A stretch of DNA of 62,174 bases, filler included, from Hausera hauseri (Eukaryota): assembly GCA_046269625.1 (NCBI GenBank). It is 11 parts of 11 records of this genome, joined end to end, with 100 filler letters (N's around TTAATTAATTAA, not from the genome) between each part and the next. Parts side by side here need not be neighbours in the genome. Positions count along the whole stretch, not along the records: positions 35,753 to 44,209 come from JBJURY010635441.1; 10 more parts are not named here. The stretch is one strand, 5' to 3'. Shown here in pieces: positions 26,989 to 59,699 of the stretch. The notes under the pieces were generated by a model, which did no database searches, had not been told where the DNA came from, and saw nothing but the letters and a program-made list of their open reading frames with translations. A program made the position numbers and the translations under genes. Each line of letters opens with the position of its first letter. Position 1 is the first letter of the stretch.

Positions 26989-26999
26989 TATTAACTTTC

Positions 27000-28781: not shown

Positions 28782-30121
28782 CCCAACAGTCGACTAATGA
28801 AATGGGCTATGTTGCTCCAACCGTATGACCTTAAGTTTGAATATAAAACGGGGAAAGCTAATGCAAATGCAGACTACATGTCCAGAATACCTGAAGACAT
28901 AGATCAAGAGGAAGAAATAACGGATAAACCAGGCGTTATAGCAGCCATTTGGAGTATTACAAAAGAAAAATCACTGTTACAAAAACAGCAAAATGACAAA
29001 CAGATAAAACAAATCAAAAAATTTCTACAAAAGAAAATGATATCCTGAGATACTAACCTTCATGTACATTTAGAAAAATTTGTTGAAAATTATGAAATAA
29101 AGAATAGTATTATGTACTACAACCACAAAGGAAAACTAGTTGTAGTTGTCCCACAAGACAAAGTTATTATTAATCCAGTATCACAACAGGGTGCTGGAAG
29201 GACATCAGCGATAAAGAACGTTAGGCAGATTAAAAAGAAAATCTTGGTACATGCCGAAGGATGCTCAGGAATGGTGTAAAAGCTGTCCAATCTGTACCAC
29301 AAGGAAGAATACAGTTTCAAAAATCAAAGTCCATCTCAAACCATTAGAATGGCCACCGGCTTCAATGGAATTTTCAGCAATGGACATTCTAGGACTATTA
29401 CCTATGACAGTAAATGGAAACAAATATGTTAGTGTTTGTAGACTTGTTATCCAGATGGCCAGTTGTAATTCCAATATCAGACCAGAAAGCTCAAACTATT
29501 GCTCAGGCATTTGTAGAAGAAATCATATTTAATTACGGAGCACTCTAAATTATTAACAGATCAAGCTCAAAATTTTACAGAAGTTATGGTAGAAAACTCA
29601 AAAATATTTCGGATATTACAGTTGAAAACAACTACCTATCATCCACAAACTAATGGAACAGTAGAAAGATTTAACGGAATTTTAACCAATATGTTGGATA
29701 CGATGGTTATTGAACGACAATATGATTGGGACGAATTCATAAAGCCTTGTCTATTTCAATCAGAAACACGATTCATCCTGCGACAAAAGAAACCTTATAT
29801 ACCAGTTGATTTAGGCGTCAAAAACACCGGTCTCATATTTAAATGATATGGAATACAAAAAATTGCTGGAAGAGAAACCGGGTTATGTATGGAATTTGGC
29901 AGCAAGACACATAAAGATCTGTCAAAAAGAATATAAAACTAGATATTATGAAAAACCCAAACTGCATAACTTCAAACCTGAAGACAAGATTATGTTGCAT
30001 ACGCCTCTGGGTAAGAAATGAAAACTCCAGAACTGGACAGACCAAACAAAGGTCCTTATATGATCCAAAAAGTAAATGAGATTAATATCTACTTAAATAA
30101 AAATAAAAAAATAAAATCGAC
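28782..30121 (+). mobile_element. Degenerate Ty3/Gypsy pol 3' part (end of RNase H, integrase)
   Basis: Motifs RLMKWAMLLQPYD..YKTGKANANADYMSR, WCKSCPIC, MDILGLLP, TDQ, YHPQTNGTVERFN and GPY at 30051. Several stops and frameshifts. Confidence 0.9.
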
Positions 30122-30202
30122 CCCATAAAAGTCCATGCAAATAGATGTAAGCCAGCACCAACGGATTCTAGGATCAGAAATGAAAACCTCGGTCTATTAC
30201 TA

Positions 30203-34099: not shown

Positions 34100-35470
34100 G
34101 AACGGCACTCTCGGATGTGCTCATTGCGTCAGAGGAGGTGCCGCTCAGTCGGTTCATTCTTCTACGTAAGTCCGTTTCCAAATCCGATTAGTCTCTTGGC
34201 GATTGTAAGTCAAAGTTGTAGGATGTAGTGGGTTTTTGGGGCAATATTTCTACTACCTCTTTATTTTCTCCACTGACATAGTACTTCAGTCTGGTAGCTT
34301 CGGCTGTACATACAGGACAAATCGTTTTCCCCTTTTTCAGTGTTCACGTTTCTGAACAGTATCTACAGTACTTGTGAGTACAGTCTTTATTGTCCAATAC
34401 CACGAATTCTTGGTAGAGATTAGCGTCGCAAACTGGGCATTCTTCCTTTTCATCTCCATCTATGTCTACGAGGTTTTCATCAACTTCTATTTATTCGAAT
34501 ACTAGTCCTTTTTTATCTTGATATAAGTATCCATATAAGCGTTTTTGTTTAGGGTCTATAGAACTTTTTTAGGGTCGTCTGATACTGTGACCAAAGTCCA
34601 CTCGACTACCTCTTGTTTATCTAAATCAGGTATTCCAGTTTTCTTGTATTGCCTTTTTAGTTGAATTCGAACTTGAGTATCCACAGGAATTGTCAATCGG
34701 TTAGTACCGTTCATTGATTGGAATATCGGGGTTAGATATCTGCCAACAGTGGTATATTCTCTTGTGTATCCGTTTCCACTTACTATTCTCCTGGGAACGG
34801 TGGATATATGGAATATCGCTTCCTTAATTTTACCCTTGCTATAATATTCGGTCATGACAAGCATTCAGTGGTATTCTTTTACTTGACCAAATTCCGTGAC
34901 TATGATTGGGACATCTTCTTCCCAATTCTTCCAAAGGACGTTTACTTCTGTCTTGAGGGAATTGGATTTAATAGTTTTCCATTGGCCTTCGTTGTTTTCT
35001 TTCGTTTCTTAACTGATCGGTATTTCGGTCTGATCGTCTATCCGTTCATTTGGTGTGGGTCTGTTTGATGCTGATTTGATTTCTTTCGTTTTCTCTTACT
35101 GGTTTTGCTTCCTTTTTGCTAATATATTCTAGGAAGAAGGTTTTTGTCTTTGTCCTCTCGAATTTTCATCTTGAGCTCTACTGGTTAACGGTTTTTGTCT
35201 ACTGTTTGATGTTTCTGCTGAACTATTGTGTATAGTTTCTCGAAATCGATTATATTTTTGAGGTTTGATTTGCCTATAAACTCTTTTTGGAATTTTTATA
35301 TCAAGACTTTCGGATTGTTGTCGGATATCACATTCTATACGGGACTTCTAGGTTTCTACTCATGTTCCCGTCGTAATGAGGCATAGATGTCTTTTAGAAA
35401 CCTTGTTCTTTGACTTGCTGACATCCGTTTAGGAAATTTGAATTCTCCGCCATTCATGGCCTCTAACATA
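34100..35470 (-). pseudogene. 3' part of a second accessory-ORF copy: exonuclease tail, basic region, conserved domain, RING finger
   Basis: MLVMTEYYSKGKIKEAIF...EWTLVTVSDDPKK..YGYLYQD matches MLVMAEYCSHQKIKEAVF...DWTLVSVNYDPRK..HGYLYQD at 14431-15041. RING: CPVC...CTHKYCRYC...CPVC. Confidence 0.8.
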
Positions 35471-35652: not shown

Positions 35653-36383
35653 NNNNNNNNNNNNNNNNNNNNNNNNNNNNNNNNNNNNNNNNNNNNTTAA
35701 TTAATTAANNNNNNNNNNNNNNNNNNNNNNNNNNNNNNNNNNNNNNNNNNNNGTAATTGTTATATTAATAAATATTTTATACAGACTTCTTTGTCTTCTG
35801 TTTTGTCTTAGTGTAAATTATTTTGTTGTGACAATGACATTAACTTTACATTACAAAAGGGTGGGAATAGTGAAACCACGACTGCCCCAAAATTAAAACA
35901 AAAGTGGGGTGGTAATAGTGAAATCCAACAGCGGCCAGAAAATGCTTTGTTCACAACCAAAATTTAAACAAAAAAATTTCTTGGCGCGAAATTCAAATTT
36001 TTAAGTCCGCCTACAATCCTGGCAGTACGCTTGCTTCTGTGTTTCACTTTCATATTAGGATCGATTGATTATTGACAATATTGAATTGATTGATTATTGA
36101 CAATATTGACCCATTGATTAACATTGTGTTAGGATCGATTGATTATTGACAATGCTGAATTGATTAGTTGTTGACGATATTTACCCCTTTCTTGTATATA
36201 TATTGTCGAGCCTCTATGATAGGCGTTTTTACTATACTGTCAATTGTAAAGTTACTTGTGAACCCTACCTTACAATTGCAACCACCATAAAATATAATTA
36301 GTTTGAAAATTTAAATTATTTATTTTGCTTCGTTTTGCCAATTTTAAAAAAGAAAAAATCATTTCACAAATCGTCAATGAATC

Positions 36384-36526
36384 ATTGAATTTTAATTTTT
36401 GAAAAGTCCATGAACTTAATTGTATGAATCACTGGTTTTTCAAAATCAACAGATTGAATTTTAATTTTTGAAAAGTCCATGAACTTAATTGTATGCATCA
36501 CCGGTTTTTCAAAATCAACAGATTGA
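36384..36526. repeat. 69-bp tandem duplication. Other local duplications at about 36056-36180, 36822-36877, 42072-42116 and 42193-42355
   Basis: Direct repeats are visible in the sequence. Confidence 0.85.
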
Positions 36527-39011
36527 GCTTCAAATTCAGAATTGACGTCATTAGTATGAACCTTGAATTTAAAATTGACGTCACTAGCATGGACTTCGAA
36601 TTTGAAAATAAAAATTATAAACAAACCCACACATAAATAGTCGAGGCATTCACGAACAAAAACACACACAAAATTCTACTATCAAACCTAAAGATTTTAT
36701 TATTAGTTGACGTACCAAATTTCCAGGAGAACTTGTAGGTAAGTTCCTCATATTTTATGACTGAAACATATAAATTTAAGAAATACTAAGGCGACAAAGA
36801 CTAGCACAGAGAATTATTTGAAGAAATTGTATATCCGACTATTGACGAAAGAAATTGTATATCCGACTATTGACGAATAATCCTAATAAATTCTACATTG
36901 AGCTTACCTTTGACGATTTGAACAATAAATTGATAAATGGCTGAAGCAAATTCTTTTGATAATGGTGAGTTGTCAATTGTTTTATTTTATTATGTTACCG
37001 ATGTAAAGTATTGTGTTAAAATACAATTTTGATATATTAAATATTTGCGGAATACAAAGATGGATATGGATCGTGAAAGAGTATACGAAAACAAAGACAT
37101 GAACCGCTGTGGAACTTCGAAGCTGGAGTGGTAAAGCAAAACAACGTTAATCAGTGTGTCTAGCAAAACAACTATGGATGTCAAAATGGCTAAATTCGTG
37201 ATATATGTGATACCCTACGTAACGATAGATTATGACAGGAGCACCGATACACCAGAGCATTGAATATAATCGATGATGGATTCACCTGAGAGCTCTACAG
37301 AGAACCTGAACCGGAGACCGAATATACTAAGGAATCATAATTCTCCGAGGACGAGTATAGAGGTCACAAGTACGCCGGATATTCTCTCAGTTCGATAGAC
37401 AAACGGAGTTGTAAAATAATTGTGGTATTAGTAAATTGTTGGTATAGCTGGGGATGGGAGTGTGAAGGTAGCGTGTTGGTACCCCGTCTTGATGATTATT
37501 GAATGGAATTATTAATTCATATAAAATTGATGAACATTTCCTATAATTGTATGTCTTATGATTTAATGATATTTACCTTAATAAGAGTTGAATAATAGCG
37601 TGTTGAAAGTGTTAATGGCGGGTTTATATATATTAATATTGTTCCTAGCGACGTTAATGGTATCTATGTAATAATTCCGGGTAGTATATGTTAGATGGTA
37701 CCATAGTTATTATGATAGTTAACAGAAATTTGGAATTTTTACGAGAATAAAAATAAAAATAATGAGTTATTATGTTCTATGGGGTTACTAGGTTAAAGTA
37801 TTGTAACGGAGAATATCATAGTACAAATAATGAGTATAATGGATGCGAGTCCCTTTCATATAGATAATATTATAATTTTGCATCAGATGATGATAAGGTT
37901 ATGATTTGTGAAAAAGAATATTTGCCAGTAATCGTGACGGAGGCATAACATATGACCATACGGTACCTACTAATCTATAAACTAACGTAATTGTGTAAGG
38001 ATGAATATATCTTGAGATTGTATAAAATAAAGTACGTCTATTCAATTCGATGTAGAATCATAAAAAGTTTATGCCTAAATATACGTCAGAATATAAAACG
38101 AATGTACGATGAACCATGAGATGAAATGTTCGTTTAGACAATAGAAGCTTGCAAAATACCGGTTAACTACCTTTCGTATATTTCGATATGATATGTAGTA
38201 CTTAGGTGATAGAATAAATGTGTGACGATAGTAATAATAACAAACCTATTTCAGTGATTAGTAACTATCCACATAATACAAAGGATTTAAAGGAGATAAA
38301 ATATTACTTTTAGGTTAGATGGCTGTATTTTTCGACTAGAGGCAATTTGTTTCTCATTCATTCAATTTAACGAAAAATCTGAAATTTTTATTATCGATAT
38401 TTTATCTTATTGTATTGCATCTATTCTTATGTATTAGTGTGTTTTCTATTCACCCAACAGTAAACCCAATAGTTTTAGTTGATGAATGAAAGTGAGTTCG
38501 ATTTGGGAATTCTATAAAGGAATGGATCTCCGTTATTGACGTGAAGTGTAAGTTCTTGAAGAGTGTAAAGGATTGTCTATTGTCAAAAGTCTTCACGTCC
38601 TTTTGTCTGTAACACCTAACACTCTATAATTGTTGTAATGTGGTTAGAGAATCTTCAAATCCCATTTTGATAATAATTGACGAACGTGAAAAAATCAACT
38701 TTGAGGAAGTATGATATACAAGGAACATGATACCCCCACAACCTAGATTATTGAGACTCTCTATATATCGACATGAATCGAGAGTATAGGAGGGACGCTA
38801 TATCGATAATAGAAGAAATTTGAATATCGAACTTTTGGATAATAGATCGGCATGCGGATATCTATCCCTAGTCAGAATTAAAAGTGTACTATACTATTCT
38901 TGAAAATAACATGTTTAACTCTTTTGATGATATGGAAAGAGGAAAATTGATATATATATATATACATATAATAGGTAGACATAATCGCGGGAACCCAGAA
39001 AGCTGTTTGTA

Positions 39012-39036
39012 ATGCCCTTGGTAAATAAAGGCGCAG
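39012..39036 (+). CDS. Putative leader exon, unit 1 (MPLVNKGA + G, phase-1 donor CAG|GTATTT)
   Basis: ATG at 39012. The donor context AAAGGCGCAG|GTATTT is conserved in unit 2. A TA-rich tract lies at about 38950. Confidence 0.5.
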
Positions 39037-39092
39037 GTATTTTATATACCGAACCGCCATCGGACTTCCCCTTCAGATTCAAATAAAATTTA

Positions 39093-39181
39093 TTTATATG
39101 TTACTATGAAACCTTATGGAACCTCAAAATGTCCCAATATTTCAACTACCTTGAATTCGGTACAAAATAGTAACATATAAA
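39093..39181. repeat. Perfect 15-bp inverted repeat around a 59-nt loop (unit 1), LTR-end-like TGTTACTAT...ATAGTAACA
   Basis: TTTATATGTTACTAT (39093-39107) and ATAGTAACATATAAA (39167-39181). Confidence 0.9.
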
Positions 39182-39182
39182 C

Positions 39183-39200
39183 TGGTGCCCCGAGTGAGGA
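39183..39200 (+). promoter_or_regulatory. tRNA primer-binding site, elongator tRNA-Met-like (unit 1)
   Basis: TGGTGCCCCGAGTGAGGA differs by one base from the complement of the animal elongator tRNA-Met 3' end as recalled (TGGTGCCCCGTGTGAGGA). It lies 7 nt after ...TAACA. Confidence 0.75.
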
Positions 39201-39281
39201 CACCTTTGGACTATAAGAAAAAATTGCGATTAAAATAATAATCGATAATTTTAGGAGAAATTTTATTTATTTGAAATTCAG

Positions 39282-39592
39282 ATAGCAAATACGGACCAGT
39301 AAAGTGCGAAATCTGTTTCGGATTACTGGGACGACATTATGCACTTTTTCGGTGCACGCACATAATGTGCGTTAAATGTGCAGATCGCTGGCTATCGAAG
39401 AGCCAGACGTGTCCCTTTTGCCGGAGGAAGATAAGTTCCTACCAGTGTCGAGGAGCCACAGTAGTGGTCATCCCAGACGATAAAGAAGACGAAGAAGGAA
39501 ATGAAATAGAGGAGGACGATAATGCAGTACCAGAGGACCAGCATGACCTATACGTATATGGACCCAATGGACTTGTGTACATGGCAATATAG
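39282..39592 (+). CDS. RING-finger (C3HC4) exon A1 with acidic tail
   Basis: CEIC...CTHIMCVKC...CPFCRR. Acceptor TTCAG in phase 1. AATAAA at 39596. Confidence 0.8.
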
Positions 39593-39765
39593 TGAAATAA
39601 AATATTTTTGGCCTTGATGAAGAATAATAATAGATTATGGGCGGCCCAACGGGATTGATAATGGTTGATAAAGAGATAATAACTTGATTGTAGTAGTAAT
39701 AGTAGTATGAAGTCTATCTTAGAGAAGAATAAATTAAAGAATTAAATGAATTACATTGATTTCAG

Positions 39766-40001
39766 GTTGTGCTATCTGCAAGAAATTTTCGGAAACTCGG
39801 GACGAAGAGGAGATTCTCTGCCCCCTATGTTATTTGGTAGAAAGATTGAAACAATCAGAAGATTCATTTGAGTGTGGACATTGCAAGGAGGAAACTAATT
39901 TGGGCTTAATGACCATGGACAAAGACTGTTTCTTACTATGTCCTATTTGTGCCCTATCATGGAATGACCTGGAAGAAATTGATAAATTGACTAATTTGTG
40001 A
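39766..40001 (+). CDS. Zinc-finger exon B1 (four CxxC)
   Basis: CAIC, CPLC, CGHC and CPIC. Acceptor TTTCAG in phase 1. Frame conserved in unit 2. Confidence 0.72.
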
Positions 40002-40196
40002 AATATGTAACAAGAGTAAATTGATTATAGTACTTCGCGAAATTTGGTTTTGCACCCCATATGTGCCCTGATAGGTGGAATTGCGGATTTGTGAGTGATC
40101 ATAATATGATAAGTTTTAATAAATAGAAGTCGTTTTATTAGAAGAATTTATTATTATTAGCAAATGAATACTTGGAATAAACTATTACCATTTAAG

Positions 40197-40648
40197 GAAA
40201 CGGATACAGAAATGGAAGTGAAAACAGAATGGAACCCGAAAAATGTCCCATCTGCCTTGAGGAAATGATGGAGGAAAGAACCACACTCCCATGTAAACAT
40301 AGCTACTGCAGTCCCTGCATTAACATTTGGTTGGGGGAGCACAGCAATTGTCCTTGTTGCCGAAGAGATTGTACCTTCTGTTGGGTATGTTCCAAATTAG
40401 TAGCCGAGGACTTGGCCACCCTATCGTGCAGACATGTATTTTGTCAGTCGTGTATCCTCGAATATTTAGCGTGCTGCCAATTGTGCCCCTACTGCTTAGA
40501 AACAGTGGATTTTTATATCACAGAGGGGGTGATTACCTATTTGAATTTTAATGGACAATCCTCTATAATGCTAGTGATTGACGAAGATGATGGCAGTTGG
40601 CCAGAAGCGTGGAGAAATCCACAACCATATATATTAGACATAAACTAA
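40197..40648 (+). CDS. Tandem double-RING exon C1
   Basis: CPIC...CKHSYCSPC...CPCCRR, then CWVC...CRHVFCQSC...CPYC. Acceptor TTTAAG in phase 1. AATAAA at 40661. Confidence 0.85.
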
Positions 40649-40706
40649 AATTAATTTATTAATAAAATTAATTATAGTGAATCGCTTATTTTCTTTACTA
40701 TTTAAG

Positions 40707-40930
40707 GTTATTTCCCCGACTTGAATTCGGTGCCTGTTTTATCACACGGATTCCAACAGAAAGTAGATCACCATTATTCCGTTTATAATCCAAATGGAAC
40801 TTTCACCACAATAGGGAAGGAATGCACCATTTGCCTCAGCAATTATTCCACCAAGCCAGTGGAGTTAATCTCATGCAAGCACCAGTTTTGTCGCTGCTGC
40901 ATAAGGGAGTGGTTCTCCAAAAATAGGTAA
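40707..40930 (+). CDS. RING exon D1 (last CxxC missing; possibly spliced at AG|GTAAAA, or truncated)
   Basis: CTIC...CKHQFCRCCIREW. Acceptor TTTAAG in phase 1. Confidence 0.65.
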
Positions 40931-42440
40931 AAGTCTTTTATTAGTTTATTTGTTGTATTATCATTTTATCTTGGTTGACTTGTACATTTTGTATTATTGA
41001 ATAAATCTTTAAAATTTAAATTTATACAACGACGATAAAAGAGATCGTAGGAAAGAAGGAGGAGCTGTTCAGTAGAATGCCAAGAAATGAATTGGAGAAT
41101 CAGACGGTCATGTTTTGGCAAAGCAATTAATGATTAATTGTTGTGGTCAAAGGAAAACTTTGAGACGCTCGATTATGGACAATTCTTCTTCTCGTTCAAG
41201 GTATGTGGTGTTAGAAAAAGCGTGATTAACAGGATGAAATCCTTCCCTTCGAAAAGCATAAAAGAAGACCTGAGTCTGTGTCTATTATATCTGCGACTTC
41301 GGTTTCATATCGGAACGATAGTGGCCATCGAATTGCGTCAGATAATCTAATTATGTCGAGGAATTGGGATATCTTGAATGGTCATTAATTTTATCAGAAG
41401 TTCGAGAGTTATTATATAAATATATGATTGTCATGTGGAATGTGGTGGGCGAATCTAAATATTTTAGATTAATAATTGTAAATTTTATGATCCGAAAACA
41501 TAAAATAGACGTGATAATTCATTGCTGTACGTCATAGGAGATTATTGTTTAAAATTCTTGTTTGTAATGTCATCGTTGTTAGATGTTACTGCGGAGTTGT
41601 GTTATATTGTTGTGTATAGGGTGCATCCTTAGGTTGTGATGGATCAAAATGAGTAACTTATGAGAAGGAGACATTCCTCGAAAGGTATGTAAATAGTCTG
41701 ACGTGGCGATCAGCAATGATTAAAGTCACGATGGGCCTTACAGAATGATTACAGTACTGTATTGTTACACAATCAATAAATTGAATTTTATTAATGTAAA
41801 ATGCAAAGGGTATTAAAGGCACGATGACTCAACACAAGACGAATAACCATAGACATGAATAACTGAACGATATGAAGAAAAGAGAAAGCACAATAATAAG
41901 AAATAAAAATATCCAAAATCCCAAAGCCAATAACGTTATATCACTATACTAGCCGTTAGAGTTCTCGTGCTTGAAATATGATGACCATAGTGATCAGGAC
42001 TATTAAAAGGGCTTTATTCAAGATGTTTAAATAATTGTGAATATTCGGAGAACGGCCACGTTAAAATTTCATTCTTAGCACGGTTTACGACCACATTCTT
42101 AACACGGTTTACGACCAGGAAAGATAAAAGTTGAATATTCTGGATATAACCCGACGAGTGAATGTATGTACTTGGCTAGGTTTGAAATATGTAAACATAC
42201 ATTATTCTGAAATTACTGCATATTTGATTTCTTTTAAAATACAGAAACATATAAACATACATTATTCTGGAAGTACTGCATATTTGATTTCTTTTAAAAT
42301 ACAGAAACGTAAAAATATACGTTATTCTGAAACTTGCGTATTTGATTTGTTTTAAATCCCGAGATGAGGAGGTTTAGTACGCATGTATGTACACGGGCAT
42401 GTATAATCATGAAGACACGTCGCTATTAGTTATACTTCTG

Positions 42441-42456
42441 ATGATCAAAGGCGCAG
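42441..42456 (+). CDS. Putative leader exon, unit 2 (MIKGA + G, phase-1 donor; frame open back to 42387)
   Basis: ATGATCAAAGGCGCAG|GTATTT, the same donor context as unit 1. Confidence 0.5.
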
Positions 42457-42510
42457 GTATTTTACATACCAAACCGCCCTTGAACTCCCCTTTAGATATA
42501 ATGATGAACA

Positions 42511-42605
42511 TTTATATGTTACTATACCAAGGAGGAATACACATAACATATAATCACCGATCGATACTAATCACTGATGCAATACACGAAATAGTAACAT
42601 ATAAA
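42511..42605. repeat. The same 15-bp inverted repeat around an unrelated 65-nt loop (unit 2)
   Basis: TTTATATGTTACTAT (42511-42525) and ATAGTAACATATAAA (42591-42605). Confidence 0.9.
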
Positions 42606-42606
42606 C

Positions 42607-42624
42607 TGGTGCCCCGAGTGAGGA
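42607..42624 (+). promoter_or_regulatory. tRNA primer-binding site, elongator tRNA-Met-like (unit 2)
   Basis: TGGTGCCCCGAGTGAGGA is identical to unit 1, while the sequence downstream of it diverges. Confidence 0.75.
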
Positions 42625-42761
42625 GCACAATAGTTGGAAGGATAAGAAGAATCTAGATTTGGAGAACAAAGCATTAAGATAAACTTTCAATTTGTGAATC
42701 GTCACTTTATTGCAAAATATATTTAGAACTGTGGTAAATTTTTAGTTTCTGATAATTTTAG

Positions 42762-43057
42762 GAGATCGAAATGGAACAACACCCTGTGACATATGTTTCG
42801 GACCCCTCGGAAGAAGATATGCCTTATTGAGATGCACTCACATAATGTGCACTCATTGCGCAGACAAATGGTTGATGAAGAAGCAGTCATGCCCGTTTTG
42901 CAGGCGAAAAACCACATCCTATCAGTGTTGGGGAACCACTGTGGTGGTGATCCCGGACGAAGAAGAAAGTGAAACAGAGGACGAGGATGCAATACCAGAA
43001 GATCAGCATGATCTGTACGTATTTGGACCTAATGGAATTGTATACATGCCAATTTAA
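42762..43057 (+). CDS. RING-finger exon A2
   Basis: CDIC...CTHIMCTHC...CPFCRR, paralog of A1. Acceptor TTTTAG in phase 1. AATAAA at 43061. Confidence 0.8.
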
Positions 43058-43234
43058 TGCAATAAAACATTCATTTTTGGCCTTGATAAGAAATAATAAT
43101 AGAGCATAGGCGGTCTAATGGAATCAGTAATAGCCGATAGGAAACAATAAATTGATTATAGTAGCAATAGAAGCGTGAAGTATATCTTAGAAAAGAATAA
43201 ATTAAAGAATTAAATGAATTAACATTGATTTTAG

Positions 43235-43470
43235 GATGCGTCATATGCGGAAAACCGCCCGAGGTTAACAATGAAAGAAAAAACTCATGTGCATTATGTT
43301 ACCTCGTCGAAAGGATGAAGCATCGGGAAGATCTGTTTGAGTGCGCATACTGTGGGGAGGAGGCCAATATAAGTATTATGATCATGGACTCAAACTGTTT
43401 TCTGGTATGTCCTATCTGCTCCCTATCGTGGAATGACTTGGAAGAGATTGACAAATTGACTAATTTGTGA
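43235..43470 (+). CDS. Zinc-finger exon B2
   Basis: CVIC, CALC, CAYC and CPIC, paralog of B1. Phase-1 acceptor. Confidence 0.72.
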
Positions 43471-43671
43471 AATATGTAATGAAAGTAAATTGATTATTGT
43501 ACTTCGCGAAATTTGGTTTTGCATCCCATATGTGCCCTGACAGGCATAATCGCGGATTTGTAAATGATCATAATATGATAAGTTTTAACAAATAGAAGTC
43601 GTTTTATTAGAATTTATTATTATTAGTAAATGAATATGGAAAATATTTAAAATAAACTATTACCATTTAAG

Positions 43672-44132
43672 GACACGGACACAGAAATGGAAGTGAAAAC
43701 AGAATGGAACCCGAAAAATGTCCCATCTGCCTTGAAGAAATAATGGAGGAAAGAACCACACTCCCATGCAGGCATAGCTACTGCAGTTCCTGTATTAACA
43801 TCTTGTTGGGGGAACACAACAATTGCCCCTGTTGCAGAAGAGATTGTACATTCTGTTGGGTATGCTCCAAACTAGTAGCCGAAGACTTGGCCACCCTATC
43901 GTGTAGACATGTATTTTGTCGGTCATGTATTCTCGAATATCTGGCGTGTTGTCAAATGTGCCCTTATTGCCTGGAAACAGTAGACTTCTACGTCATGGAA
44001 GGAATTATTACATACTTGAATGTTGACAACCGCCCATCCATAATGCTAATGATTGATGAGGACGACGGCAGTTGGCCAGAGGCATGGAGAAACCCGCAGC
44101 CCTATGCAATATTAGACATAGATTGGAATTAA
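43672..44132 (+). CDS. Tandem double-RING exon C2 (exon D2 begins at 44187 and is cut by the contig end)
   Basis: Paralog of C1 with many synonymous differences. Phase-1 acceptor and AATAAA after the stop. Confidence 0.85.
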
Positions 44133-44309
44133 ATTATTATTAATAAAAATTAATTGTTGTAAATTGTTTATTTTTATTATATTAAGGTTATTTTCCCGAT
44201 TTGAACTCTNNNNNNNNNNNNNNNNNNNNNNNNNNNNNNNNNNNNNNNNNNNNTTAATTAATTAANNNNNNNNNNNNNNNNNNNNNNNNNNNNNNNNNNN
44301 NNNNNNNNN

Positions 44310-46176
44310 ACAATGATTTCAACCAACTATTTCAGAACATTTAAAGGAAACGTAAACAAAGCATGCTATTACAAATATCAAACATGGACATGCACAGTAA
44401 TAACATTAAATGAATTTGCAACCGCTGTAGAAACAATATTAGTTTGCCTCTTTCATTATCTTTCTCCCTTTTTTTTTTCTTTTTTTTTTTTTATGCTAAG
44501 ACAACCTGAACTGATGAGTCTTAATTCACTGCACGACTGCACTGTTCCAAATTGATGCCTTTTTCACCCGAAATGTACCACTGCAGTTCGGATGTCCTAC
44601 TGTTGTGAAAACAAGTAAGGCGCGAAACCTTACGGGCTCCCGTCGTCGAAGCATGGCGTGCAGGGCTCCCACAGCTCGGTTGCTAACAGGCGACGTTTTC
44701 ACTATAACTGCTCCCAAGGGTGTTTCGTCTGGTGCAGAATAAAGCCACGCTCCAACTGATGTTTTACCAGCCTTTAATCTTCTTTTTTGGCCGCAAACAA
44801 CGTGAAAACTAACAAATACAGATTAAATACATGTTAGCAGATTAACATTCACAACCACATTAACGCTTACAAAAAAAATAAATAAAATAAATGTATAACA
44901 TACCGTGTGCGCCTTCTGACCAAACGTTTAGGAGATGTTATTGTCCATATCTTCCGTCTTAAGTAAACTCCGACGTAACTTATTGTCTGAGCGTCTTTAG
45001 CATCTTCTAGAAGCTTAGGTCTGCTATCGGTCACGTGATCAGAGCTTAACCATGTATTGGTGCAATACACTTTTTCACCAACAGGTGTCAGTAATACAAC
45101 ATATTAAATTAAATTCTCGTATTTACAAAGGAAATTAAACCACAAATAAACAAACAAACACCTTTTCTTTCTGCGACAGCTACACTGCCACCAAAATTAC
45201 AAAAGATTTGTATTCACCATATCAAACAAAATACAATCTTGTAATTGTCCATAAATTAACAATCAACCATCAAATTAAGTTACAAATAAAATTATTGAAT
45301 TACAGTCTTAAGGATCACATATTTGTGTTTTGAGTTATCATTTGTACTCTTTTACAATAGTTTAGGAGTCATTTTCAACCAATACCACTATTTTCTGAAC
45401 TGGTCTCTCAAGAAAAGATAGTTTTTTCAAACGTTCACCGTTCCTTCCCAAATCTGTTTGTCCGACTTGGATCTTAACCTTTCGCACCAAACCATCATCG
45501 TCTTTACTTGTTTCAACTACCTTTGCCAATTTCCATTCATTTCTAGGAATATTGTCCTCCTTTACAATGACTATATCCCCCACCTGTACATTTCTTTTAG
45601 GTGTATGCCACTGTTGTCTTAAGCTGATGTTGGTTAAGTATTCTTTGCGCCATCTGCTCCAAAACTGCTCCGTCAAATATTGCACTTTCCGCCACCTCTT
45701 CCTGGTGTACAAATCCTCTCTGATGAATCTACCAGGAGGCGGGAGTGCCACTGACTCCTTCATAGTGAGCAAATGATTAGGCGTTAAAGGTTCAACACTT
45801 TTTGGATCAATGATTGTATCTGTAGTGAGTGGACGATGGTTCACAATGGACATGGCCTCATAAAAGAAAGTTCTCAATGAGTTGTCATCCAATCTTCCTG
45901 TGGCTTGTGCCAAGACTGAACTCATGACATTCCTAACTGTCCGGATTTGACGTTCCCAAACACCTCCCCGGTGACTAGCTTCAGGAATGTTCATTTGGAA
46001 GTCGCATTGATTTTTAGCCAGATAGGTAGAGATTCTGTCTTTATCCAACTCCTGTAAACTCCTTTCAAACTCGTTCTTAGCTCCAACAAAGTTTGTGCCT
46101 TGGTCAGAACGAATCTGTCTCACTGCACCTCTGATTGCAATGAAACATCTCAACGCATTTATAAATGCATCAGTGG
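44310..46176 (-). mobile_element. BEL/Pao LTR retrotransposon 3' fragment: integrase ORF 45362-46153, PPT, 3' LTR from 45184 downward
   Basis: Motifs IRSDQGTNFVGA, ASHRGGVWERQIR, PLTPNHLL, FWSRWRKEYL and ERPVQKIVVL. On the - strand TTTTGGTGGCAG is followed by TGTA at 45184. Confidence 0.93.
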
Positions 46177-46208
46177 TTTAAATATTTGTCATTTTCTCTG
46201 CACTCAGG

Positions 46209-46932
46209 GAGGAGTGATTGGAGTCTTCATCAACTGGGATTGCAATCTTGATTTGGACCCTTCGCACTGTAAACCAACGTACTCCTTCCGTCGTCTTGAT
46301 CTCCGAAAGGATCTGAGTAACACTGGTTATTATTACAGGTCAGCACCAAAAACTCTCCAGGTTCTCAGCTATAACCATCAGTTTGTTAAAGAATGATTTA
46401 AGTTGTTTCACTTTGTTTTTCATTTCTTCACTGACCTACATTTGAGAAAATGTTTTTGCATTTCACTTTTTTGGGCAGATGATAATCGACAACATCAACT
46501 GGCCTAAAGATGAAGACATAGATGAGGACATAGTCTCTTTGGAAGATCACTGTCTGATCATGAGTTTCCTCCGCAGATTCATAGAATGTGGTAAGCAATG
46601 TTTTAAAAATACATTCGGAGTGAGTTTTTCAAAAGTGAATTATGAAGAATTTTTTTGCTGATGTATTGATAACATTAACTCTTAACATAAAGTGTAAATT
46701 TGTGTGCATTAAAGGGACATCAGACATCCTTCGGAATCTACTAACTTTTTGGACCGGCTGGGGTCTGGTCAGCTCCAATCTGGAGGTAGAAGTTGTTGAC
46801 TGCCATCTCCCGCAGTCATCCACTTGCTTCCTGACGTTGAAGTTGTCCAAAAATCACAAAACCTATGCAGACTTCCACCAACACCTTATGGCCAGCATGT
46901 CTTCAAGCTACTCGGGTTTTGGCCTACTTTGA
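46209..46932 (+). pseudogene. 3' exons of a G2E3-like HECT-domain gene
   Basis: The last exon reads LLTFWTG...LPQSSTCFLTLKLS...F...L...SGFGLL, a HECT C-lobe pattern that includes the TC motif. Confidence 0.7.
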
Positions 46933-47609
46933 ACCAGGCCATTTCAACGTGTTACAAGTTTATGCACTTAGAAATGCACTATGTAATTATTTCAAAGTTA
47001 CAAATTTCAAATGTTTTGTAATTGTTATGAAATAGTGTGTAGTGCACTTGTTAATTACTCGAGTTTGACAGACCTTTACATTCTTGTTTCAAATATAACT
47101 GTTTCATGTTGTTGTAGAACATATTTTGAAGCTTCTACTTGCAGCTATAAATTGTTTACCCAGTTAACACATTCATTAGCTGTATCACAGACAATTTTAA
47201 GAAATATTAGACCATCATAGTAATTAATTTCGTATCTAGAAATTGCTTACACACAAAATGTTAAAGCTGATATGGTTGAATTTGTAATGAAAATTACAAT
47301 GGTTTAATAATGGTGACTTTATTACGTAAACATGTAATTAGCACATGTAAACACTGAATATTGTTAAATTAAAAAAGTTTACATCCAATTTATTTTCTTT
47401 TCCAATATCGAATGTAACTTGAATACCACTGTGTAATATTATGTGATCAGTATTAATACATAGCTAGTTGGCTCTGTTATAACGATGTAGATTTCAGAAC
47501 CTTTCAGCAAAAAAATGCGACACACACATTTTGATAATACATTACACCCACCAAAAAAGGATGTTTATGTATCAAGGAAAAAAGTTGTACCAAATTATGA
47601 AGGAAATGT

Positions 47610-49313
47610 CTTTTGTAGCTTTAATTTACATATTTCCAAAGATTCCAGTGAGAATATCAACTGTCTGGCGATAAACATTTATCACATTAGAAAACAAGGA
47701 CGTTGGATGTGGTAGTGTTTCAATTTCCACCCGAGTCAAAGGCCTTGGAAGCTCTACCTCTGGCACAGTCACGCCATCATGATGGCGACCATATTGGCTC
47801 TCCCCATCAATACCATACTGGTTGTCAACCTGTCAAAGATTTAAGAAAACATAAGTAACATCCAGATTACACACACTGGTGTTTTTTTAAACAACCAAAG
47901 CAAATTTACAATAGCACTTTGTCAAATGACATAAATAAACAAACCTGTGCAGGGTCGTGATCTGCACGTTGGTTTTGATACCACAACAGTAGTGGTGACT
48001 GGTTCTGTTCTGTGCGTAGTCTGTGGTTGTTCCAGCCATCCATGAAGAATTGCAGATGTCTGTTGATTTGAGGTAGAAAGGTCCAGTGTAATGCGTATAA
48101 GTGCACCTTGTTGTCTGTTGGCAGTAGGCCCTCGGTCTCCAGGTAGCAGAAAGTTGTATAAAACAGATCCAACACTGCCCCAAATACATCTCTCCATAAC
48201 CTTTCAATCCTGGATGGAAAATACATTGTAGAGTGAAAAAGGAGCAAAACAAGGTTGTCATAATACACTTATATAAAGACCAACAACTTAAAATAAAACT
48301 TACAATTTCTCAATCAATGTTAGTCATTTTATGCAACTGTTTGTAGCCATTAGACAAATTTATTGCTTAATTCAATATCTTCTTATACAATAGCTCAGAG
48401 AAACGCTGTAAGAACAGTCTATGAACGTCGTTAAAATTTAGCCAATTCAGTCATCTGTACTTCAAAAATTTGAAGACACGGACAAATTTACAAAGCCTTG
48501 GACTGCTATGTCAGTTAGAGCAGTTGAATCTTCCATCAGCCCAGGCCCATGGAGACACCGGAGAAGACGTGAGAGAAAACGAAAGCGAGGATGTCATGGA
48601 CTTTCAGCTAAGCTAAAAGCTAACCCTTTCTGAGTGATCCCTTGAAAGCAAGTTGAACTATGTAAAGCTGGATTTAACCACCAAAAGGGAAACAAGAAAA
48701 GGATGCATTCTATTTTTCTGTGAGACATGGCTAAACTCATCTGTTCCTGATAATGCCATCAGCCTGGAGGGAGGGGCTAACAACTTTTAGAGCTGACAGG
48801 AGCCATACACTTACAGGTAAATCCAGGGGAGGTAGTGTTTGGATTTACATTAACAACATCTGGTGTAACAACGCCACCCTGGTCTCCAGTTATTGGTCTG
48901 TGGACACTGAGTTCATGATTGTGAGATCCAGACCTTTCTACATACCCTGGGAATTCACAACGGTTATTTTTCATACTATTTTGAGAAATGTAGCAACTTC
49001 CATTGAAGTAGTCAGTCTGAAAACATGGAGAATGGAGGATAAATCAAGACGTTCATTTAAATACCTCTGGTTATGTGTGCTTCTTCCTGTTATGTGAGAA
49101 TTTCTGTTTTGGCCTCTGGTTGAGACCATGAAGTGTGCCACTAGTACGTTCTCCCCTCCTTTGTCAGAACGAACACGAGATGGCACTCCATATGTATTCA
49201 CAGCTTCAAGAAAGCTGTCAAGAACTGTTGTGGCACGATTGTTTGTAGCAGCAGTCAGGTAAACAATGAGGCGACTAAAGCCGTCAATGCCCCCATGAAC
49301 AACGATTCGCCAT
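47610..49313 (-). mobile_element. Spliced DDE transposase (integrase-core, IS3EU-like); exons 49313-49065, 48209-47945 and 47829-about 47650
   Basis: [43 protein letters not shown]|IERLWRDV and WNNHRLRTE, joined across GT-AG introns. Confidence 0.8.
48420..48970 (+). mobile_element. Rex1/Babar-type LINE endonuclease fragment inside the transposase intron
   Basis: ETWLNSSVPDNAI, FRADR..TGKSRGG and RPFYIPWEFT. Confidence 0.75.
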
Positions 49314-49939
49314 CTATATAGACAACAAAAACATTTTTGATTAGCATGGTATCAGGAACTTTCTTTTGTTTGTTGAATGCAGGCCATGAATTCACAGAGA
49401 AGGAAAATCATAACTGCAGTGCTCTTATTCAGCAGAGTAAATGTTTACGTTAAAACACAGAGCAGTTCCATTAAAAGTACATTTCTTACTTATGCAAAGA
49501 CGAGTTAAAAAACTTTAATGTCATTGTGTTTGTTGGTCTCTGTGTGAAAAGTTTCTTAATGAAAGTAATCTGTGTAATCATCATCACTTGAGGTCCTTCC
49601 TTATTCACTACTTTTAAAGAGTACATGTATTTGCAATGTCAACTTAATTCCTCTTTTTTAAACATTACATTAACATGGGACCATGAGCAGTCAAAACATT
49701 TCTATGAATAAATTTTTCCTTTAATGATCACACTTATATGCTTTTCATTATGTGAATGTAATAAAGCAGCTACAGAACTTTTACAAACATGAAAAAAAAG
49801 ATTTTTTTCTTAATAGGTTTATAGGCTTCGTAATAGATGTGACCCGTAAGAAACAGAATGATTTAAATTAAGTTATCAAAACCATTTCAAAATAGATGGT
49901 AACTGAAGAAGAGGGAACATTTTTTATGCTTCCCAGTCC

Positions 49940-50170
49940 AGGGGCCTTTATGGGTGGAGTTTGCATGTTCTCTCCGTGCATGTGTGGGTTTCCTCCGGGT
50001 ACTCCAGTTTCCTCCCACAGACCAAAAACATGCATGTTAGACTGATTGGTAACTCTAAATTGTCTCTAGGTGTGAGTGAGAGAGTGAATGGTTGTTTGTC
50101 TCTATGTGTCCCTGTGATGGACTGGAGACCTGTCCAGGGTGTACCCCGCCCCTCGCACTGTGACAGCTGG
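49940..50170 (+). mobile_element. V-SINE (HE1/DANA/mermaid-like) fragment typical of fish
   Basis: GTGGAGTTTGCATGTTCTC..GTGGGTTTCCTCCGGGTACTCCAGTTTCCTCCCACAG..GACCTGTCCAGGGTGTACCCCGCC. Confidence 0.88.
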
Positions 50171-52973
50171 NNNNNNNNNNNNNNNNNNNNNNNNNNNNNN
50201 NNNNNNNNNNNNNNTTAATTAATTAANNNNNNNNNNNNNNNNNNNNNNNNNNNNNNNNNNNNNNNNNNNNGGTCAGTACTTGATCCCATGTTTCATTCGC
50301 ACATAACTGCTGTGCAATGCAATGGGCCAGACCCCTAAGGGGGACTTCCTTGACCTGCCTAATACTTTGAGAAACCACACATCATGGGGTGGACCTGTCC
50401 AAAAGTAGAGAAGGAGAGCATCATATACTTCGTTTATTAAATTTCAGCTGTATTTCTAAACAAGGTATTTTAAAATTTTTTTAAAATTAAGCATAGATTT
50501 CAAATATGGCATTAATTAAATAATAACTTTTAATATTGGGTCAACAAATTCTTATTTCTCTGTGAAGGAATCGAGAGATTCAAAAACCTTTTGCAATTCA
50601 GATTCGAGAAAATGTAGGATTCATCCCATCTCTTGTCATAACCAAGCCATCCACATTGCTTACTGGTATTGCAAATGAGCAGACAAATCATGCTTATGGG
50701 ATAGAAATTCAACTCAGTTTGCCTTCTGTTAAAATACTTGCTTGAACTGTATGGGAATATATGGGTATGTGTGTACATTAAACTGGAGTGATTGACTCAA
50801 AAATTGTATCTCTTACAAATTGTAACGTGTAAAAACTGTACTTTTGAACGTATCCATGATTGACACTTACAGTGTCTTTGACATCAACAGGGTGGGTGGT
50901 TGCGATTAGCTTCTTTTCATCCCAGTGGGTATCCTCAATCCCATGGGGTTGTGCAAGGCATGGTGAGCACTGTAACACTAATCGCTGGGGAGCATTTTAT
51001 TTTCACTTGCTAGCTCCAAATTGCTTCTGCTTGTGTGTCATTGATTTCTCCCCTTCCCACTGTTAGCTGTGCCACATTCCAATATCCATTGACTCAATGG
51101 GGCTAATGTTGTACAGTCCCCACAACCCAATGACAGATGTTTTCTGGATATTACTGTCCTTGGCAGTTATTCTGAGCATTCATGTGTTCAGTCAGAGGGT
51201 TGGTCACGTCATCCATTCTGGTGACTTCATTAAGAGCGCTGTTAAGATTGTTGTGCAGTCTTGCTATCTCAAACTCGTTGGAAACCACTAAAGGGACGTG
51301 CAAGGGGGTTCTTAAGAGAAAGAGTGAAAGAGACATGTATTTGTTGACAGTGAAGAATTCACTTCAGGGAGAGTGAGGGTGTAATTGATGAGGCACATAA
51401 TGTATACCACATGCTGGTGAGTTCTGCATACTGCATTGTAAGGGGGACCACCAGTTATACTGCTGGATACTCGGTCACCCCCAAAGCCAACTCTGCAGAA
51501 ACACGGGCACCTCGTGTAGTTGTGGCTTTGGACACAGTAATGCAGAAGAAGCTGCTTGAAAGCTCACAGTGTATACACTGGTGCCACGACAGCCACTACA
51601 TCTGGTGATGAGATGCTATGGTAATCACGTCATCACCTTCTTGGGGAGTCCAGACATGTCTAGACTCCACCACCCCCACACTTACCTACTATTTACCAAA
51701 AAGTTAATATAGCTGTCTGACTTGTACACATTAGGGAAGACAGACTAAATTCAGATGTAAATACTTTTGTTTTTAAATCCACACTTGTATACTTTTCTGA
51801 CTTACAAGTTTTAGAAGCAATGCAAACATAAGCTGGAAGTTTAACTAACTAGATCTCTTATGTACTTTTCTATACAGGTTCTAAAGATCCAACGAATGGT
51901 AAGATAGAAAGCAATTGTCTGTACTGACTTTACTGTTACCGTTATTCTGGTGTCTCATTAGCAAAGAAGGAGACACATCAAATTTAATGGAGGAGTCATT
52001 TATATTTGGCATATTATTTGTATGTTACATAATTTGGCAATATACTATATTTAGCCATAAGCAGATCTAGTTTTAACATTCTGTTTGCCAGAGTTTCTAT
52101 ATCTGAAATAAATGTGCTTAGAATTCGCATTATTACTAAAAATCAGTGAGAGTTAAGTTTGGGCTGTGGAGGCATAGTTACCTCCAGACACGCCTATATA
52201 TTTAACACTTCATAATTTCCATTAAAACACGTTATTATATCCTCCAGTCTAGAGTTTCCACAGAGAATCGGGCTTTGCACTGATAATCTCTTGGCTTGGT
52301 TCCACTCTAGTCCTTGATCTTTGATAGCTCGTTCAATATTTCTTGTTCAGCCTCATTTTGATCTATCGCTGTATCAAACTCCATGATGTTTTCTTGGCAG
52401 CCGTTTGGTAATCATTCTTCACACGAAGCCAAACTACCTCAGCTGGTGGTCTAATTGATGGGAGACTGCAATGCTTGTACATCGAGCCCCATACCTATTG
52501 TCTGGTTTTATATCTTACCCTTTCTGGTTTTTCTTTGTGTCTTTCCTCAATTTCTTATTTCAGAGTGTGTTGAGGTTAATCTTCAGAATTTGTATCCATA
52601 CGTTACAACAGGGACACACATATGTAGAAAGACCATTTTAGAAATTAACACCTGCTTCTTCTTTCCTGAGAAATGCTGGGTTAATTGCTTAACAAAGTCT
52701 TTCAATCTTCGCTTAAACATAGTACATATGGCATCATACTATCCCTTACATGAAGGTCATATAAAGGTCAGAATCTGCCTTACTCTTATCTCTTTACTGG
52801 TTTTTAATATCATGCAATAGATGTGTTCTTAAACATCTTCTGACCACACACACACACAGACAGACAGATAGTGTAAACATTATAGTGAAACAGAGAAAAT
52901 CACCAAAAAAATGTCAATGTACAAAATGAATAGACCATTTACTCTGCAAACCTTTCTTTGCATTGACTGTAGA

Positions 52974-53640
52974 CATCATCATCATCAGACGCATGCTGCA
53001 AACTTTAGGCTGTCATGAATCTCCATTTCTCGCGATTCCTGGTGTCCCCACTCATCTCTGCTGTTGACCTACTTCCGAGCCATTCTTGCAAAACATCCAG
53101 AAACTTCATTCTTTGCCATCCACTGCTTCTATTTCCTGGTATTTTGCCTTTGGTGACCAAGTTCTCCAGACCTTCTCTACTTAAAATATGGCCAATCATA
53201 GATGTTTGTCTCTTTCTGATCTTACTGATTAGCATTCTTTCTGCATCTGCTTCTTGTAAAACATCTTAATTTGTTCTCTTTTCTGTCCAAGGGATTTTCA
53301 ACATTCTTCTGAGAAACCACATCGCTGCTCCTTTTAAAGAATGTTCCAATTTTTACTCAGTGTCCAAGATTCGCAGCCATACATTAGTATGGGTTCGATA
53401 TAACACCGCAGAACTCTTTTTCTCAATGGTAATGACATATTTGTCGTACATAAAATGCTTTTCATTTTCTGAAATGCTGTTTGTGCCTGTGCATTTCAAT
53501 TTTTTATTTTCGTGTCACATCTGCCATCTGATGTTAAAGATTTCCAAGATATTTGACTTTCTGCACTTGCTTTACTTTTGTCAATTTTATCATTACTTTG
53601 CACACTGGTGGCATTTTTTTCTTAGAGACTGTCATCATTA
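52974..53640 (-). mobile_element. RTE-type LINE 3' fragment with (GAT)n tail
   Basis: WFLRRMLKIPWTEKRTN, IRKRQ..IGHILSREGLE and GKIPGNRSSG, ending in a GAT microsatellite. Confidence 0.8.
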
Positions 53641-53773
53641 CTGTTTTTTTTTTTTTTGGCGTTTAAGCTGAGTCAGTTCTCTCCACTTTCAGTTATTACT
53701 GTGCAGTGTAGTTAAAAAACAAAAGTGCGGAAAATAGACATCATCATTCTTTGAATAAATGTGTGTATTTCAG

Positions 53774-59680: not shown

Positions 59681-59699
59681 GGCGTTCTACGTCCGATTT

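Follow-up and report, generated by a model that had tools for sequence, protein, structure and literature searches.

Two stretches of one Hausera hauseri scaffold each carry a short ATG exon followed by four cysteine-rich exons, and the question is whether they form a host gene family resembling lola and mod(mdg4) or the accessory region of a mobile element. The window (the whole stretch of DNA analysed, 62,174 nucleotides from assembly GCA_046269625.1) consists of small scaffolds joined by spacers and may contain more than one organism. The cassette region is a single scaffold of 8457 bp (35753-44209) bearing two units, each made up of an ATG leader exon, a hairpin, a primer-binding site and four zinc-finger exons; the scaffold end at 44209 cuts unit 2 after 7 codons of exon 4. 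The units are old sister subfamilies (dS of at least 0.85) joined at an apparent break near 40924, not the result of a recent duplication. Elsewhere in the window, there are scaffolds with Gypsy relics whose ORFs end in decayed RINGs, and elements with env before pol. The features of the two units are as follows.

39012..39036, + strand: unit 1 ATG leader exon, 25 nt, phase 1, probably within the R/U5 part of an LTR
39093..39181, + strand: unit 1 hairpin, a perfect 15-bp inverted repeat (arms 39093-39107 and 39167-39181)
39171-39175, + strand: unit 1 LTR-type end TAACA, within the right hairpin arm
39183..39200, + strand: unit 1 tRNA-Met primer-binding site (18-mer match)
39282..39592, + strand: unit 1 exon 1, C3HC4 RING, acidic stretch and conserved tail; predicted product 111 aa
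39766..40001, + strand: unit 1 exon 2, zinc finger of non-RING type with four CxxC pairs; predicted product 86 aa
40061..40090, + strand: candidate second ATG mini-exon, 10 codons, phase-0 donor, weak; unit 2 counterpart at 43530-43559
40197..40648, + strand: unit 1 exon 3, a tandem pair of C3HC4 RINGs with a conserved IDEDDGSWPEAWRNP tail; its own Met is codon 11
40707..40930, + strand: unit 1 exon 4, RING broken before the last CxxC pair, junction near 40924
40924..42440, + strand: non-coding region 5' of unit 2, containing tandem repeats of 60 bp (42184-42361); probably the U3/promoter part of an LTR
42441..42456, + strand: unit 2 ATG leader exon, 16 nt, phase 1
42511..42605, + strand: unit 2 hairpin, 15-bp arms as in unit 1; TAACA at 42595-42599
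42607..42624, + strand: unit 2 tRNA-Met primer-binding site, identical to that of unit 1
42762..43057, + strand: unit 2 exon 1 (RING)
43235..43470, + strand: unit 2 exon 2 (non-RING zinc finger)
43672..44132, + strand: unit 2 exon 3 (double RING)
44187..44209, + strand: unit 2 exon 4, first 7 codons, then scaffold end

Leader, splice sites and reading phase

Both donors (39036 and 42456) and each of the eight acceptors lie where the sequence-only reading had placed them, and the exons open in phase 1 as it proposed: seven of the eight acceptors lead into a long Cys-rich frame of 73-152 aa, with 0-34 aa in phases 0 and 2, and at the eighth (unit 2 exon 4) the phase-1 frame is open for 7 codons up to the scaffold end. 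Every claimed acceptor is the top-scoring of the 8-12 AGs in its upstream scan, by an ad hoc score devised after the sequence had been seen. The GTATTT donor is weak. Each unit does have an ATG leader mini-exon with a phase-1 donor, but the two ATGs are at non-homologous positions; phase-1 ATGs are found at 39012 in unit 1 and at 42441, 42387 and 42399 in unit 2, where out-of-phase ATGs (42383 and 42409) also precede the donor. The predicted constant part contributed by the leader is 5-8 codons.

It had also been claimed that three of the four exon types have no ATG ahead of their first CxxC, and this is the case (the first Met comes later in exons 1 and 2, and there is none in exon 4), so that splicing is nearly required. 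In exon 4, which has no Met, conservation begins at codon 1; an in-frame TAA lies within the acceptor of exons 3 and 4 in both units. Phase-1 splicing to alternative terminal exons is thus a prediction with strong sequence support, selection beginning at the acceptors and extending to each stop. Constitutive splicing into one long protein was rejected in view of the conservation of the exon tails up to each stop, which indicates that these are last exons. The AATAAA signals said to follow the stops are close in both units for exons 1 and 3 (3-12 nt; in unit 1, 3 nt past the stop of exon 1 and 12 nt past that of exon 3, with a chance of such proximity of about 5% each), but are 69-180 nt off for exons 2 and 4.

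Selection and zinc-finger content of the exons

The many synonymous changes reported between the paralogs were borne out by a substitution test between the units, with pS exceeding pN in exon 1 (0.63/0.20), exon 2 (0.83/0.22) and exon 3 (0.51/0.06), and purifying selection on all three (Fisher p from 2e-10 to 9e-22); in the first 7 codons of exon 4 there are four synonymous and no replacement changes. The description of all four as RING/zinc-finger exons needs to be narrowed: whole RINGs, with eight zinc ligands at C3HC4 spacing, are found in exons 1 and 3 only, exon 2 has four CxxC pairs without the RING His, and exon 4 is broken in unit 1, where the stop precedes the last CxxC pair. Pfam RING matches above the cut-off were obtained for exons 1, 3 and 4. 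Exon 2 had no Pfam match in unit 1 and one in unit 2 at E 0.046, below passing, and no PHROG family match; its structure model has a pLDDT of 61 and a best fold match of Z 3.5. The model predicted for exon 3 superposes on the RINGs of RNF8 and RNF165 (~1 A over 45 residues). Trp and Arg after the last Cys, which have a role in E2-dependent ubiquitin transfer, are present in exon 1 and in the first RING of unit 1 exon 3. The products of exons 1 and 3 are predicted to be small RING ubiquitin ligases, and the proposed repertoire of E3 ligases would extend to these two exons and not to exons 2 and 4.

Relatives of these proteins are scarce. A profile search of 1.84 billion proteins gave 14,150 matches, among the best 150 of which the tail was covered only by P0001, the one full-length relative, a single-member cluster on a 756-nt contig; the tail motif was found in one of 270 proteins retrieved, and an Atlas search returned generic RING clusters. 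No relatives of exon 3 were found in viral contigs or metagenome contigs, and a search of proteins of comparable length gave no relative of exon 1.

The primer-binding site and the origin of the cassette

The supposed first intron of both units contains an invariant 36-nt block, comprising an LTR-type end (TAACA) and, after a gap of 7 nt, an 18-nt tRNA-Met primer-binding site. It is the longest exact block common to the units 5' of exon 1, followed by one of 18 nt at the donor (39027-39044 in unit 1) and one of 16 nt at the left hairpin arm. The primer-site 18-mer is present at two places in the window, where 0.01 would be expected, and agrees at 16 of 18 bases with the tRNA-Met site in Table 2 of PMC1084362; no tRNA and no Rfam match was found within the window. 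The 15-bp hairpin ahead of the primer site (z of -3.4 in unit 1 and -3.3 in unit 2) has arms that are invariant between units and a loop that cannot be aligned. A primer site is recopied from the tRNA in every cycle and would remain invariant, which fits the identity of the two sites. Similarity in the 300 nt ahead of the two donors is no higher than in shuffles, and the upstream regions of the units are unalike past ~170 nt. The scaffold, on which both units end within exon 4, has no gag, pol or matching LTR pair; its three purine runs include two inside exon 3 and none before a plausible LTR start. The hairpin arms could likewise be accounted for as those of a 77-83-nt mini-LTR or MITE with a TATA duplication, a reading that was set aside given that no polypurine tract precedes the left arm and that the hairpin flanks are homologous between both units.

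The same 18-mer was found at 58 metagenome loci. TAACA lies 0-8 nt ahead of it in 47 of these (background 1.6%), 46 of the 47 being from one sample, and the gap is 1-3 nt in 46 of the 47, shorter than on the scaffold. None of the 58 loci has a tRNA gene, so the matches are not tRNA genes. A gag start or CCHC motif was found at 9 primer-site loci, and the downstream ORFs tested (3/3) have CCHC knuckles and a weak Retrotrans_gag match. No hairpin longer than 9 bp was present at any TAACA-linked locus having enough upstream DNA, no sequence outside the primer-site surroundings is common to these loci and the scaffold, and the primer-site patterns were not found in viral contigs or prokaryote genomes.

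In two read sets the cassette is covered far deeper than its flanks; the median summed depth in run X1, a sum over contigs that does not equal copy number, is 949 for the cassette (222-3908), 33 upstream and 42 between the units. This depth and the many variant contigs point to a multicopy family. The 32 listed exon positions that differ between reads and window comprise 15 synonymous and 17 non-synonymous differences, so both window copies may have undergone some decay. Of 75 joints, the 15 listed include none between a donor and an acceptor, a result with no bearing on splicing, as the contigs (library type unrecorded) cross introns.

Taken with the primer site behind an LTR-type end in both first introns, the depth identifies spliced viral accessory genes as the right one of the two analogies that had been offered, and leaves the other, a host locus of the lola or mod(mdg4) type, unsupported. 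Each unit probably represents the 5' portion of a Gypsy-like LTR retroelement present in many copies, with an LTR-borne leader spliced singly to exons that give predicted RING ligases (probability about 0.58). Transcription would begin in the LTR, and a splice donor within the LTR, upstream of the primer site, would feed the alternative last exons, one exon being joined to the leader per message. Spliced messages would thereby lack the primer site and hairpin, and reverse transcription would be limited to unspliced RNA, so that introns are kept. The poly(A) signals after exons 1 and 3 would terminate short messages and be read through in genomic RNA. Most speculatively, the RING products might recruit host E2 enzymes, and the conserved tails might mark host silencing or restriction proteins for degradation. 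Only tentatively can the fuller proposal be put forward, of an LTR element family, possibly without its own gag-pol, in which one leader serves a row of alternative last exons, each a different mini zinc-finger/RING ligase, as a multicopy, selected arsenal against host defence.

A rather unlikely variant keeps the retroelement and its spliced exons but has exons 3 and 4, or every exon separately, depend on different donors or on a promoter inside the conserved spacer ahead of exon 3; several features nevertheless speak for it. Identity between the units reaches 91% in the spacer separating exon 2 from exon 3, even at a pS of 0.5-0.8, and in both units this spacer contains an ATG mini-exon whose donor fits the consensus. 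Exon 3 possesses a Met of its own and begins with a short conserved phase-0 frame whose stop position is kept. At 36937-36964 there is also a third ATG mini-exon in phase 1, and its donor is strong. The spacer mini-exon is in phase 0, so it cannot open exon 4, and it is overlapped by a segment missing from other copies (deletion joint 40081-40163 in both read sets); no further phase-1 donor with an ATG is conserved in both units. Exon 3 may nonetheless use another donor or its own Met. Descent from a host gene family, whether lola/mod(mdg4)-like or immune-type, is unlikely; in that case an old LTR would have supplied the promoter and first exon, the copies would have arisen through duplication of DNA, and the primer site would be a relic. 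Introns, internal poly(A) signals, strong purifying selection and the lack of gag or pol on the scaffold would all suit such a family, but a relic primer site and LTR-type end should not remain invariant over a dS near 1, there is no constant protein domain, full-length relatives number one among the best matches, and the flanks do not share the read depth of the cassette.

A leader with alternative last exons and poly(A) sites is the typical adenovirus arrangement, and the cassette would resemble the early or accessory genes of a DNA virus or Polinton/adintovirus that had integrated and is spliced in the adenovirus manner. Small viral RING proteins, including adintovirus Oncoid (rank 28), match the fold, and a stretch read as a Polinton-like relic, with Endonuclease_7 as its only Pfam match, lies on another scaffold (4458-5792). 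This origin is nevertheless improbable: DNA viruses have no need of a tRNA primer site, the fold matches are generic RING, viral contigs hold no relatives, and polB, integrase, capsid genes and terminal inverted repeats are absent from the 8.5-kb scaffold, which is itself shorter than such an element. Very improbable is that the exons are separate operon genes resolved by spliced-leader trans-splicing. In favour of this are an operon-like spacer of 54-58 nt that separates exon 3 from exon 4 and contains stop, AATAAA and acceptor, and the standing of the host as a divergent invertebrate. The NAXD fragment of the window shows no more than 38-48% identity to the matches listed, and TMEM216 gave no information on the host. 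The frames require an AUG in phase 1, whereas the spliced leaders known have no AUG or (in flatworms) a terminal phase-0 AUG, and at unit 1 exon 4 and the six acceptors that can be seen in full the phase-0 frames span 5-27 aa.

Comparison with known systems

Few accessory genes have been described in LTR retrotransposons; most occur singly, and their function is seldom known. No description of such a spliced four-exon cassette was found in the open-access literature listings searched. If the retroelement reading is true, an invertebrate retroelement has independently attained the regulatory complexity of complex retroviruses, via a four-exon spliced ligase cassette directly behind the primer site, and offers small, testable proteins whose substrates should identify transposon-restraining host factors in a little-studied animal lineage.

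In lola, common 5' exons are joined to one of many variable 3' exons, and the constant part of lola and mod(mdg4) is large and contains a BTB domain. The cassette layout likewise combines a constant 5' exon with variable 3' exons, but its constant part is 5-8 codons, with no N-terminal BTB domain and no long ORF upstream on the scaffold, and it has a primer site. For mod(mdg4), PMC13490949 describes common 5' exons, one of many variable 3' exons, and trans-splicing from independent promoters. According to PMC11952523, Drosophila MDG1/412 elements carry two small accessory ORFs (sORF1 and sORF2) ahead of gag that are under purifying selection, and a short transcript of theirs ends at an internal poly(A) site; unlike the predicted cassette messages, their transcripts are unspliced, neither ORF is a RING, and gag-pol follows. 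The planarian giant Gypsy elements Burro/GYPSM1 have ubiquitination- and apoptosis-related domains and upstream accessory ORFs, the domains lying mostly within one giant polyprotein, and section 7 of the source describes no leader-plus-alternative-exon cassette (PMC6431247, in part). The C. elegans Cer1 CERV and bdelloid ORF3s are extra LTR-element genes with spliced messages, but are single and located after pol, and the term RING is absent from the main texts (PMC10309623, PMC5408684, both in part).

The placement of the donor has a counterpart in foamy viruses, where the major splice donor lies in R, 5' of the primer site, and serves several messages (PMC3694450, in part). Foamy and other complex retroviruses have vertebrate hosts. 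The cassette differs also in that its leader would supply its own ATG. The accessory proteins of complex retroviruses recruit host ligases and are not known to be RING ligases themselves. Among C3HC4 RING E3 ligases (RNF8, RNF165/Ark2C, RNF4), likeness is suggested by the modelled fold of exon 3 and the RING Pfam matches, but the predicted cassette products differ in being 80-160 aa with family-specific tails.

Exon layout, selection and products

The cassette is a real feature on the scaffold at 35753-44209, and runs up to the scaffold edge in a window of small scaffolds strung together with N-TTAATTAATTAA-N spacers. Two donors and eight acceptors had been placed by the sequence-only reading, and all were located there:

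39036: donor of the unit 1 leader; acceptors of exons 1 to 4 at 39282, 39766, 40197 and 40707
42456: donor of the unit 2 leader; acceptors of exons 1 to 4 at 42762, 43235, 43672 and 44187

The phase 1 claimed for all eight acceptors was recovered for the seven that are fully readable, where it gives a long Cys-rich frame. When the 8-12 AGs near each acceptor were scored by a simple scheme, the acceptor itself ranked highest; the scheme was devised after the sequence was seen and is therefore a consistency check only. Selection, as judged from the sequences, is a stronger test of the exon layout. The many synonymous changes reported between paralogs are evident in pS/pN values of 0.63/0.20 (exon 1), 0.83/0.22 (exon 2) and 0.51/0.06 (exon 3) between units. 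The last 16 codons of exon 2 carry no replacements, and a tail motif of exon 3 has 10 synonymous changes and no replacements over 17 codons; since the tails are conserved up to the stop, these are last exons, and a reading in which they join into one long protein is rejected. In exons 1 and 2 the first Met does not come until 27-48 codons into the exon, past the first CxxC, and exon 4 has none, in agreement with the claim that three exon types lack an ATG before that motif. Exon 4 has an in-frame TAA within its acceptor, followed by seven codons that are protein-identical between units with four synonymous changes. Thus, translation of exon 4 must enter at the acceptor, which would be hard to explain without phase-1 splicing.

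The leader ATGs of the two units are non-homologous. The 91% conserved spacer ahead of exon 3 contains an ATG mini-exon in phase 0, and exon 3 itself retains another short frame over its first codons; a separate route for this exon is therefore possible. An AT-rich stretch of ~20 nt, noted by eye and possibly due to chance, is common to this spacer (40115-40137) and a host scaffold (~12690-12715).

A single C3HC4 RING is encoded by exon 1 and a pair by exon 3, whose model (pLDDT 64) superposes on the RINGs of RNF8 and RNF165 at ~1 A over 45 residues. Among the exons described as RING/zinc-finger exons, these two encode whole RINGs, but exon 2 is not a RING (neither family nor clear fold was found) and unit 1 exon 4 has a stop before its last CxxC pair. 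AATAAA closely follows the stops of exons 1 and 3, but not those of exons 2 and 4. One full-length relative of exon 3 (P0001; 127 aa, 45% identical, on a 756-nt contig) carries both RINGs as well as the tail motif; no other protein among the best 150 matches (1.84 billion proteins searched) covers the tail, and no relatives were found in viral, metagenome or prokaryote collections. The cassette family is narrow and undescribed in the databases searched.

A primer-binding site within the supposed first intron

Three long exact blocks upstream of exon 1 are common to both units: one of 18 nt at the donor, one of 16 nt and one of 36 nt. The 16-nt block is an arm that pairs with the start of the 36-nt block in a perfect 15-bp hairpin (z about -3.3), whose loop could not be aligned. 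The 36-nt block terminates in TGGTGCCCCGAGTGAGGA, present twice in the window versus 0.01 expected, which agrees at 16 of 18 bases with the tRNA-Met primer-binding site listed in Table 2 of PMC1084362. An exact metagenome search for it returned 58 loci (48 from one sample), none of them tRNA genes. TAACA lies at most 8 nt upstream in 47 of the 58, versus a background of 1.6%, and also precedes the window's site, with a gap of 7 nt versus mostly 1-3 in the metagenome loci. Three downstream ORFs tested at these loci have CCHC knuckles and weak Retrotrans_gag matches. The loci have no other sequence in common with the scaffold and no long hairpin, and thus are other element families. This sequence evidence marks an LTR/primer-site junction within the leader-to-exon 1 interval, the supposed first intron.

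At one metagenome locus (L055, 1028-3400, -), the same site lies where an ORF begins; this ORF combines a partial RING with a ubiquitin-like domain and DUF7041 and precedes a protease-like ORF, placing RING and ubiquitin cargo in the gag position. An ORF of 150-230 aa, apparently within the LTR, starts ~800-1300 nt upstream of the site in 31 of the 58 loci (39 have at least 1 kb upstream); a Pfam search with one of these ORFs gave no match.

Copies and genomic surroundings

On the cassette scaffold, 5749 contigs of read run X1 and 652 of X2 were mapped, most 90-99% alike. In X1, possibly the source sample, summed depth has a median of 949 over the cassette against 33 upstream of it and 42 from one unit to the other; these values are not copy numbers. 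The X2 profile has the same shape. This depth is most simply read as a large diverged family, and a loose end at 40571 in both runs, directly before the conserved tail motif, indicates further paralogs. The 32 listed exon read differences from the window comprise 15 synonymous and 17 that are not, and partial decay of the copies in the window is possible. A 1499-nt X1 contig matches the window from 40924 onward only, after 179 other letters; together with the early stop in exon 4, this indicates that unit 1 is broken there. Two units are present as reported, but their tandem may be a deletion, a recombination or an assembly join of two old subfamilies.

Other scaffolds of the window carry animal genes with ~40-nt introns (TMEM216, NAXD) and many transposon relics, and the host is a divergent invertebrate. 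Further features were noted:

35753-36034: extremely high-copy repeat (X1 summed depth ~110,000), conserved motifs flanking a variable core, then an E2F-like site at 35981
36937-36964: third ATG mini-exon, of 9 codons in phase 1 with a strong GTGAGT donor; 69-bp tandem repeats lie upstream
44310-50170 and 50271-55514: scaffolds apparently unlike the short-intron host, with a chitin-binding exon amid long introns and, near 49907-50170, a fish-like repeat; given these, the assembly may mix organisms
30107-33145 (+): intact 1012-aa ORF directly after a Gypsy integrase relic, read here as having likely signal and transmembrane segments plus a stretch resembling an exonuclease; no Pfam match under E 0.03
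~34300-34440 and ~14380-14520 (-): decayed, mutually related RING fingers ending Gypsy-associated ORFs on two other scaffolds
55615-62174 and 24250-28681 (-): decayed Gypsy elements in which relics of a Monjiviricetes-type fusion glycoprotein precede protease-RT-RNase H-integrase; planarian Burro is described with this env-before-pol order (PMC6431247)

Element class and proposed mechanism

The sequence-only reading likened the one leader and its alternative RING exons to loci such as lola and mod(mdg4), and also to spliced viral accessory genes. The LTR/primer-site junction in the supposed first intron argues against a lola-like host locus, and the cassette is best filed under LTR-retroelement accessory genes, although its scaffold (35753-44209) contains no gag, pol, paired LTR or polypurine tract. 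Ty3/Gypsy membership is likely on sequence features that comprise the primer site and LTR end only. The full model of a spliced LTR-retroelement cassette, no description of which was found in searches of an open-access library, is given a probability of about 0.58. Under this model, transcription would begin in the LTR, and the donor upstream of the primer site would join a leader of 5-8 codons to one of four acceptors, with predicted products of ~83-158 aa. Spliced messages would lose the primer site, and introns would persist because only unspliced RNA would be copied. Internal poly(A) sites would terminate short messages. The RING products may act as small E3 ligases on host defence proteins, a step for which viral RING proteins and Burro cargo provide the analogy.

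Some of these steps have parallels in known systems: foamy viruses likewise place a donor ahead of the primer site (PMC3694450), an internal poly(A) site separates sORF1 from sORF2 in MDG1/412 elements (PMC11952523), and Burro elements carry ubiquitin-related cargo (PMC6431247), a parallel to the predicted RING ligases.
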